Sequence record: PP925821.1
DNA from: Escherichia phage Eeyore
Length of the DNA stretch: 45,057 bases
Direction: 5' to 3' (one strand)
Part shown: positions 21,438 through 22,809 of the stretch, piece after piece
Numbering within the stretch: position 1 is the stretch's first letter
Layout: every line of letters begins with the position of its first letter
Program-made: the position numbers and the translations under genes
The notes under the pieces: model-generated
Told to the model about the DNA's origin: nothing
Databases searched by the model: none
Seen by the model: the letters and a program-made list of their open reading frames with translations, nothing else

Positions 21438-21740
21438 ATGAAAATGAATGATTCAGGGAACATCTTCACGCAGTTCTTTGCGTGGGTAGCAGCTCTGGCT
21501 TCTGCCATAGGATTTACCACTCAGGATCTGGTGTTCATGTTCTTTGGCGCTGCTGGTTTGCTTATCTCGCTTGCCTCCTACATCAACGGGCGTGTAGATG
21601 CACACCGCAGGCGTAAAGAGGATGAGAAGCGAACCAAAATGGTCAATGACTACCTGAAAGGCGTTGGTGACAAACCTCTTCACGAACGTCCCGCAGCTGC
21701 AAGCGTGGTCGTTGAGGCATTACAAAAGGAAAGTGACTGA
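21438..21740 (+). CDS. Holin
   Basis: 100 aa, two hydrophobic helices (IFTQFFAWVAALASAIGF; LVFMFFGAAGLLISLASYI) and charged C-terminus; SD GAGGTGAGA; immediately upstream of the endolysin. Confidence 0.7.
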   Translation: MKMNDSGNIFTQFFAWVAALASAIGFTTQDLVFMFFGAAGLLISLASYINGRVDAHRRRKEDEKRTKMVNDYLKGVGDKPLHERPAAASVVVEALQKESD

Positions 21741-22276
21741 TGGGGACCAGAGCAAAATTGAGTGCTGCTGTTCTGGGGCTAGTACTCGCTGGTGCGCCAG
21801 CATCCGTCATTCTCGATCAGTTTCTGAATGAGAAAGAGGGTAACAGCCTCACGGCGTACAAAGATGGCGGTGGTATCTGGACGATTTGCCGCGGCGCCAC
21901 GATGGTTGATGGTAAACCGGTTGTGCAGGGCATGAAATTGACACAGGCCAAATGCAATCAGGTGAACGCCATCGAACGAAATAAGGCTCTGGCGTGGGTA
22001 GACCGCAATATTACGGTACCGCTTACCGAACCGCAGAAAGCCGGGATCGCATCTTTCTGCCCGTACAACATTGGGCCGGGTAAATGCTTCCCGTCCACGT
22101 TCTATAAGCGCATCAATGCTGGTGACCGGAAAGGGGCCTGTGAAGCTATTCGCTGGTGGATTAAAGACGGTGGGCGTGACTGCCGTCTGACCAAAGGCCA
22201 GAAGAATGGCTGCTATGGGCAGGTCGAGCGACGGGACCAGGAAAGCGCGCTGGCGTGCTGGGGGTTAGACCAATGA
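21740..22276 (+). CDS. SAR endolysin (T4/P21-type lysozyme, GH24)
   Basis: 178 aa; N-terminal Gly/Ala-rich signal-anchor ([21 protein letters not shown]); E-x8-D-x5-T triad in [18 protein letters not shown]; C-terminus resembles P21 R; start overlaps holin stop. Confidence 0.85.
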
Positions 22277-22809
22277 TCAGCGAGTCTGTTAAGACCTGGT
22301 GGAAAGCCGCCACGGTTTCAGCGCTTCTCATTGCCTCATTCGCCGCAGGTAGTGTGTGGACGGAACGAGCATGGGAAAAGAAATGGGCAGATCGTAATAG
22401 TGAGGAGTCTTCTCAGGCAGAGAACGCTCAAACGGCTGCCCGTATGATTGAACAAGGGCGAGTGATCGCTCGAGATGAGGCTGTTAAAAATGCACAAGAA
22501 CAGGCTGCAAAAGCGGCTGCGAATGCTGCTGGCCTGTCTGCCAATGTTAGCCAGCTGCGCACAGAAGCAACAAAACTTGCCGCCCGCCTGGACGCCGCAA
22601 AGCACACCTCAGGTCTTGCCGCTGCCGTCGGAAGCAAAACAACCAGCGCTAACGCCGCAATGCTCGCCGACATGCTCGGAAGCATTGCAGAAGAAGCTAA
22701 ATACTATGCTGGGCGATCTGATGAAAGTTACCGGGCAGGAATGACCTGTGAAAGAATTTACGACTCGGTCAGAGACTCAAGCCGGTCAGCTATCCCCGGA
22801 AAGGGATAA
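22273..22809 (+). CDS. Rz-like inner-membrane spanin
   Basis: 178 aa from ATG 22273 (ATGA overlap); N-terminal [24 protein letters not shown] then Ala/Gln-rich coiled-coil. Confidence 0.75.
22475..22744 (+). CDS. Rz1-like outer-membrane lipoprotein spanin, embedded in Rz in the +1 frame
   Basis: Signal peptide with lipobox LASC, Pro-rich mature region [27 protein letters not shown]; entirely inside the Rz ORF. Confidence 0.7.

Follow-up and report, generated by a model that had tools for sequence, protein, structure and literature searches.

The lysis cassette of phage lambda lies in the late operon under the control of Q; its holin, S, has a Met-Lys-Met dual start and its endolysin, R, is a transglycosylase. 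The lambda order is S-R-Rz/Rz1, where Rz1 is read in the +1 frame from within Rz; the lambda holin S105 has three transmembrane domains (TMDs) and forms micron-scale holes, and the lambda endolysin accumulates in the cytoplasm (PMC6139136). Phage 21 (S21/R21/Rz/Rz1) and its copy in DLP12 of E. coli K-12 (essD-rrrD-rzpD/rzoD), the paradigm for pairs of pinholin and SAR (signal-anchor-release) endolysin, have a four-gene architecture in which the outer-membrane spanin (o-spanin) gene is embedded in that of the inner-membrane spanin (i-spanin). Phage N15 has been listed as an embedded two-component spanin family (Kongari et al. 2018, PMC6139136). In this study we compared with these systems a lysis locus of Escherichia phage Eeyore (PP925821.1), whose sequence of 45,057 nucleotides is referred to here as the window. 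Positions 21438-22809 on the + strand hold four lysis open reading frames (ORFs), for a holin, an endolysin, an i-spanin and an embedded o-spanin, in the order of the lambda cassette and in the same architecture as phage 21 and DLP12. It is suggested that they form a late-operon lysis cassette of the N15 type in a lambdoid prophage of the Enterobacter cloacae complex, to which, as a joint figure for this explanation as a whole, we give a probability of about 0.88.

The gene order is the same in the window and in phage N15: in N15 a methylase (gene 52) is followed by a terminator, the holin gp53, the lysozyme gp54 and gp55, a protein with a DUF2514 domain. Identities to the proteins of the window are 66% for the holin, 91% for the endolysin and 69% for the i-spanin. 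The putative rho-independent terminator in the N15 record, between genes 52 and 53, matches in position the hairpin that precedes the holin gene in the window (Table 1), and N15 gp55 also holds an embedded lipoprotein ORF of 84 residues, with the same two motifs, of which one is C.PTCSE. The two phages differ in other respects. The start of the i-spanin gene lies in ATGA in the window and in GTGA in N15, and N15 is a linear-plasmid prophage whereas the window belongs to a lambdoid prophage of the integrating kind, in which there are an ORF of integrase size and a gpA-type terminase. In relatives, exchange of the spanin module is independent of the holin and endolysin.

An earlier annotation of this DNA, made from the letters alone (the original prediction), had proposed a four-gene lysis cassette here, and all four ORFs were found as it described. 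It had also held that all four genes are translationally coupled. This applies to the three serial genes, as the holin stop and endolysin start overlap by one nucleotide (TGATG) and the endolysin stop and i-spanin start by four (ATGA), but not to the o-spanin gene, which has an internal start with its own Shine-Dalgarno sequence. The functions given to the genes in Table 1 are assignments made through homology and sequence features.

Table 1. The predicted lysis genes of the window and the features that precede them.
Feature	Position	Strand	Remarks
Q antiterminator gene	18180-18893		PF06323
N6/N4 DNA methylase gene	20317-21369		upstream of holin
Terminator-like hairpin and T-run	21374-21393	+	8-bp stem with 5 GC pairs, then TTTTTATT; between methylase stop and holin start
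Holin, N15 gp53 family, 100 aa	21438-21740	+	phrog_1350 'holin', E=1.8e-24
SAR (signal-anchor-release)-type GH24 endolysin, 178 aa	21740-22276	+	PF00959, E=7e-25; phrog_7 endolysin, E=8e-62
i-spanin (Rz analogue), 178 aa	22273-22809	+	DUF2514, E=2e-45; phrog_312 'Rz-like spanin', E=6e-53
o-spanin (Rz1 analogue), 84-aa precursor	22490-22744	+	+1 frame of i-spanin; phrog_11621 'Rz-like spanin', E=1e-11

The endolysin had been credited with a Gly/Ala-rich N-terminal SAR domain and with a catalytic region like that of phage 21 R, and both were recovered. Its sole hydrophobic segment comprises residues 7-25 (nucleotides 21758-21814). This segment is preceded by R4 and K6, consists to 47% of Gly, Ala, Ser and Thr, and is weakly hydrophobic, with a Kyte-Doolittle value of 2.16 and a summed Hessa value of +1.7; for RrrD the latter is +0.8 and the share of the same four residues 63%. 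When the PDB was searched with HMMER, the endolysin aligned with full-length R21 (3hde) and DLP12 RrrD (4zpu) from residue 6 onwards, hydrophobic N-terminus included, at 38% identity. The motif E33-x8-D42-x5-T48 aligned with the corresponding catalytic residues of these two enzymes and is invariant in 20 homologues. An AlphaFold model of the protein has a predicted local distance difference test (pLDDT) score of 80.4, and residues 11-30, at pLDDT 92-95, form helices inside the fold. Foldseek aligned the model with full-length R21 and RrrD over approximately 181 columns, its matches being 7m5i, 3hde and 4zpu, with template modelling scores of 0.64-0.73, and also 1xjt, the Lyz of phage P1. A search of NCBIfam gave a sub-threshold match to a GTA-endolysin only. 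By sequence criteria, the protein is supported as an R21-type SAR endolysin, which shares with R21 the GH24 domain, the SAR N-terminus, the E-x8-D-x5-T motif and a SAR segment free of Cys.

One feature of the same N-terminus counts against this assignment, in that it resembles a cleavable signal peptide, with an n-region (MGTRAK), an h-region of 11 residues and a c-region G-A-P-A|S that contains an AXA-like signal-peptidase site, A19-P20-A21|S22. If it were an ordinary Sec signal peptide the enzyme would become a soluble periplasmic lysozyme, restrained in some other manner, and the N-terminus left by cleavage would be about 12 residues away from Glu33, much as the catalytic Glu of T4 lysozyme is residue 11. 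However, in the alignment with R21 and RrrD the segment falls on their SAR domain, in which R21 has an equivalent site (AIA|S), and the SAR domain of R21 is retained in the mature enzyme. The helices modelled within the fold for residues 11-30, and the structural alignment with R21 over its full length, also argue against removal of the segment, and an unrestrained secreted muramidase would defeat the timing of lysis by the holin. A cleaved signal peptide is considered improbable here, and a retained SAR domain is preferred.

How a SAR endolysin of this kind might be activated is indicated by its Cys residues, which are at positions 50, 72, 107, 116, 134, 148, 158 and 173. Since none of them is in the SAR segment, conformational activation in the style of R21 is expected, and not the disulfide isomerisation of P1 Lyz. 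The latter is likewise a secreted and membrane-tethered GH24 endolysin, but its activation requires a Cys in the SAR domain, which the endolysin of the window lacks. All eight Cys are invariant in the subfamily to which this endolysin belongs, whereas R21 and RrrD have four, and the extra residues suggest two additional periplasmic disulfides. The parts of the AlphaFold model that have low confidence are loops around Cys (residues 110-114 and about 150-160). Homologues at 81% identity, such as the lysozyme of the Shiga toxin (Stx) phage TL-2011c with its similar SAR segment, adjoin genuine S21-type holin genes in Stx phages, and these homologues are predicted SAR endolysins (PMC8136144). The Stx-phage cassettes are otherwise different, having a 71-residue S21-type holin, Rz/Rz1 of another family and a gap between R and Rz/Rz1. 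The SAR endolysin of KBNP1315 was also considered for comparison and was set aside as an unrelated SLT-type enzyme.

Near the N-terminus of the i-spanin is a TMD (residues 12-30); the protein also has a periplasmic domain rich in Ala, Gln and Glu, and one Cys, at position 159. A sequence search of the PDB with the i-spanin gave no match, and neither did NCBIfam with either spanin. Comparison of the i-spanin with the lambda/21-type Rz of DLP12 (RzpD) gave E=45, that is, no sequence similarity, and the resemblance of the o-spanin to RzoD is marginal (E=0.02) and confined to the signal peptide and a PPAW motif. The lack of detectable homology to the Rz/Rz1 proteins of lambda and phage 21 weighs against the identification of these two proteins as a spanin pair, and their function rests on architecture and on family annotation. 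For this reason 'Rz' and 'Rz1' are used here as functional labels.

The o-spanin gene is part of a +1-frame ORF, 22475-22744, that lies wholly inside the i-spanin gene, in the arrangement already proposed for Rz and Rz1. Its predicted product is a precursor with a 22-residue signal and a lipobox, LASC, at 22547-22558. The mature protein would have 62 residues, with nine Pro (14.5%), consistent with the Pro-rich lipoprotein that had been described, and three Cys, two of them in addition to the one that is lipid-modified. The residue that follows the lipid-modified Cys is Ala, not Asp, so that sorting to the outer membrane is expected. The start of this gene has to be corrected from 22475. The open frame does reach upstream to ATG 22475, but it is ATG 22490 that is conserved as the start. 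In most relatives the frame is closed by a stop codon a short way before the equivalent Met, and GAGG occurs nine nucleotides before ATG 22490, an arrangement (GAGG-N9-ATG) that is itself conserved.

It could be argued that an ORF of this type is an unexpressed by-product of the Ala-rich sequence of Rz. When Rz was recoded synonymously 20,000 times, a +1 ORF of 89 codons or more survived in 7.6% of the recodings, and one of 50 residues or more that bears a lipobox in 1.8%. The length of the ORF was therefore rejected as evidence of Rz1, being weak by this measure (p about 0.08), and tests based on conservation and on synonymous rates were used instead. The ORF is also absent from a collection of 15 billion proteins, that is, it is not called by gene callers. 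Against this, a lipobox-bearing +1 ORF was present in all of the approximately 95 related loci examined, down to 29-35% identity in Rz. The frame, lipobox included, is retained in about 70 distinct relatives. Synonymous differences in Rz, which amount to 0.37-0.38 outside the overlap, fall to 0.158 inside it, a 2.4-fold reduction, and to 0.04-0.10 in the conserved core that includes C.PTCSE, where the reduction is up to about 10-fold. The conserved GAGG-N9-ATG, the match to phrog_11621 and the listing of N15 as an embedded spanin pair point in the same direction. The o-spanin frame is under selection, and its origin as a by-product is very hard to credit. In spite of this, the o-spanin is missing from most GenBank annotations of related phages, among them Fraca, Flotzy, N15 and ECONIH5, and the uncalled embedded o-spanin is a systematic annotation gap.

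Analysis of the holin gave a less certain picture. Its hydropathy profile shows two TMDs (residues 9-27 and 31-49) with a four-residue loop (TTQD) between them; TMD1 is less hydrophobic than TMD2, with summed Hessa values of +2.5 and -0.6, respectively, a difference that is no more than suggestive of TMD1 leaving the membrane. A highly charged, basic tail of approximately 50 residues follows TMD2, and from this arrangement we infer an N-in/C-in topology. The gene begins with a dual-start motif, Met1-Lys2-Met3, formed by ATG 21438 and ATG 21444, and M1-K/R-M3 is the classic signature of dual-start holins and antiholins. M1, M3, Q29 and D30 do not vary within the family, either Lys or Arg occupies position 2, and the small residues G37, G40, S44, S47 and G51 make up one conserved face of TMD2. 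Searches of Pfam and NCBIfam with the holin gave no match. The gp53-type family is a small one: in a set of 1.84 billion representative proteins, clustering at 50% identity gives it 45 clusters, and most of its members are annotated 'hypothetical protein', including an identical Enterobacter entry, WP_248081349.1.

The SAR endolysin had been taken to imply a pinholin-like partner, and the neighbours of gp53-type holin genes bear on this point. A gene for an endolysin with a hydrophobic N-terminus comes next in all 98 close loci, and the same succession occurs in N15, SPN3UB, Serratia BZS1, Yersinia YeP5, Klebsiella ST15-VIM1phi2.1 and RCIP0034. It also occurs in ten of ten divergent loci (L188-L207), whose holins are approximately 18-36% identical to one another; these were gathered by single-protein scans, as the alignment of divergent holins had no stretch conserved enough for a locus search. 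Among all of these loci and phages, no gp53-type holin had a cytoplasmic endolysin as its neighbour. Many of the holin-endolysin lineages are related, so the number of independent pairings is roughly eight. The partner endolysins are of at least three sub-types, namely the one described here, an R21-like type and one whose SAR segment contains Cys. Examples of the last are found at L191 (2091-2627) and L187 (2105-2629), where the hydrophobic N-terminus contains Cys (e.g. MKKQAGIICSVAIIIG...) and further Cys surround the catalytic Glu (E-A-C...VCP), a pattern that recalls the P1 Lyz/Lyz103 class of disulfide-caged enzymes. A partner that always has a hydrophobic N-terminus is what would be expected of a holin that needs only to depolarise the membrane. 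The constant pairing with predicted SAR endolysins therefore fits a pinholin-like function but does not prove one.

Several points weigh against a pinholin. The holin is unrelated in sequence to S21: its identity to EssD and to the Stx-phage homologue of S21 is 13-15%, no homology to the S21 pinholin was detectable, and hhalign gave a probability of 13% over 24 columns. The two proteins resemble each other in having two TMDs and a dual start (MKSM in S21, MKM in the window), but they are not homologous and differ in length (71 residues in S21 and 100 in the window). Moreover, S21 is without the cytoplasmic tail of some 50 residues found here, and its TMD1 is less hydrophobic. Together these differences make small-hole formation, and exit of TMD1 from the membrane, a matter of conjecture. 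We also found no experimental study of the gp53 holin family or of the proteins of this exact cassette. Finally, canonical large-hole holins can serve SAR endolysins, and in P1 the SAR endolysin Lyz is reported together with the holin LydA (PMC9025707).

A rival view is that this is a large-hole holin of the canonical kind, whose pairing with a SAR endolysin is a coincidence; here the holin would serve as timer and depolariser only, but it would release a cytoplasmic enzyme as well. Besides the pairing in P1 and the lack of homology to S21, its 100 residues, with a long charged C-terminal tail like that of many canonical holins and a reasonably hydrophobic TMD1, would suit such a protein. Other evidence is less easily reconciled with large holes. 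In about seven sub-clusters, defined within the family at 50% identity, and with three or more sub-types of endolysin, no neighbour that encodes a cytoplasmic endolysin was found; the endolysin family of the window serves interchangeably with S21-type pinholin genes, as seen in the Stx phages; and the small-residue face of TMD2 is conserved. We regard a large-hole holin as somewhat unlikely, and lean slightly towards pinholin function for the gp53 type. The claim of a pinholin-like partner thus agrees with the company that the holin keeps, lacks the support of homology to S21, and stands as an inference. A more specific proposal, offered tentatively and at somewhat less than even odds, is that gp53-type holins may be a second pinholin lineage that evolved independently of S21. 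Such a holin would have a SAR-like TMD1, small residues that line the pore on one face of TMD2 and a Met-Lys-Met start for the antiholin, to which a cytoplasmic regulatory tail of approximately 50 residues has been added.

The way in which the four products might act together can be pictured from the paradigms of phage 21 and lambda. The endolysin would be exported by Sec and would accumulate in the periplasm in an inactive form, with its weakly hydrophobic SAR helix as the tether that holds it at the inner membrane. In the meantime the two-TMD holin would build up in the inner membrane, where the form starting at Met1, with the extra positive charge of Lys2, may be the antiholin and the form starting at Met3 the effector. 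At a programmed time the holin would trigger and collapse the proton-motive force; the holes are probably small, as the enzyme will by then have left the cytoplasm. The SAR helix could then leave the bilayer and refold onto the catalytic domain as in R21, and the murein would be degraded. The i-spanin in the inner membrane and the o-spanin lipoprotein, which would be translated from its own internal start in the +1 frame of the i-spanin gene and is expected in the outer membrane, would be freed from the murein meshwork, and the pair may disrupt or fuse the outer membrane.

The surroundings of the cassette are those of a late operon. The window is a lambdoid prophage, in which a Q antiterminator gene, followed by terminator-like hairpins, and a DNA methylase gene lie upstream of the holin (Table 1); directly 3' of the cassette are a small-terminase-like gene (DUF1441) and then a gpA-type large terminase gene. 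The terminator ahead of the lysis genes is presumably read through by Q-modified polymerase within the late operon. Holin and endolysin proteins identical to those of the window are in GenBank from Enterobacter cloacae and E. bugandensis, as 'hypothetical protein' and 'lysozyme'. DNA searches revealed mosaicism: methylase, holin and endolysin genes occur together at 95-98% DNA identity in several E. coli prophages, some of which have a different spanin module, and the spanin module of the window is present at 98% protein identity in other viral contigs.

Some further observations were made in this region. Residues 167-197, in the interior of the methylase, match HTH_3 weakly. Between Q and the methylase, a strong bidirectional terminator at 20087-20116 (AAAAAAACCCGC-TTAA/TATT-GCGGGTTTTTTT) follows a small ORF (19905-20066); this terminator and the ORF 19098-19655, which had no match in Pfam, resemble a moron-type insertion. 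Rfam matches to Leu/Thr leaders in a scan of 18-24 kb were all sub-threshold and were dismissed, as they represent merely the hairpin of the 20087-20116 terminator. RNA folding of the holin leader gave z = -2.5, but the terminator hairpin dominates this value and a structure like the sdi of lambda is not claimed. In the 200-nucleotide gap between Rz and the small-terminase-like gene, GGGCGGCGCGCT is found at 22895-22906. It agrees with the lambda cohesive end at 10 of 12 bases; matches with two mismatches occur at chance level in the window, and it was not accepted as a lambda-like cosN but is noted as a lead to cos only.

The cassette is an already described N15-type lysis module, a type that many Enterobacter prophages share with N15; identical or near-identical copies are present in public databases, and it is ordinary, with nothing new in kind. 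Its importance hardly goes beyond annotation: the analysis puts names to genes that are labelled 'hypothetical protein' (the holin) and 'DUF2514' (the i-spanin), and it corrects the start of the o-spanin. The holin family may be of wider use. As it is unrelated to S21 and yet has been found only with predicted SAR endolysins, it would be a convenient second system in which to study what makes a pinholin.

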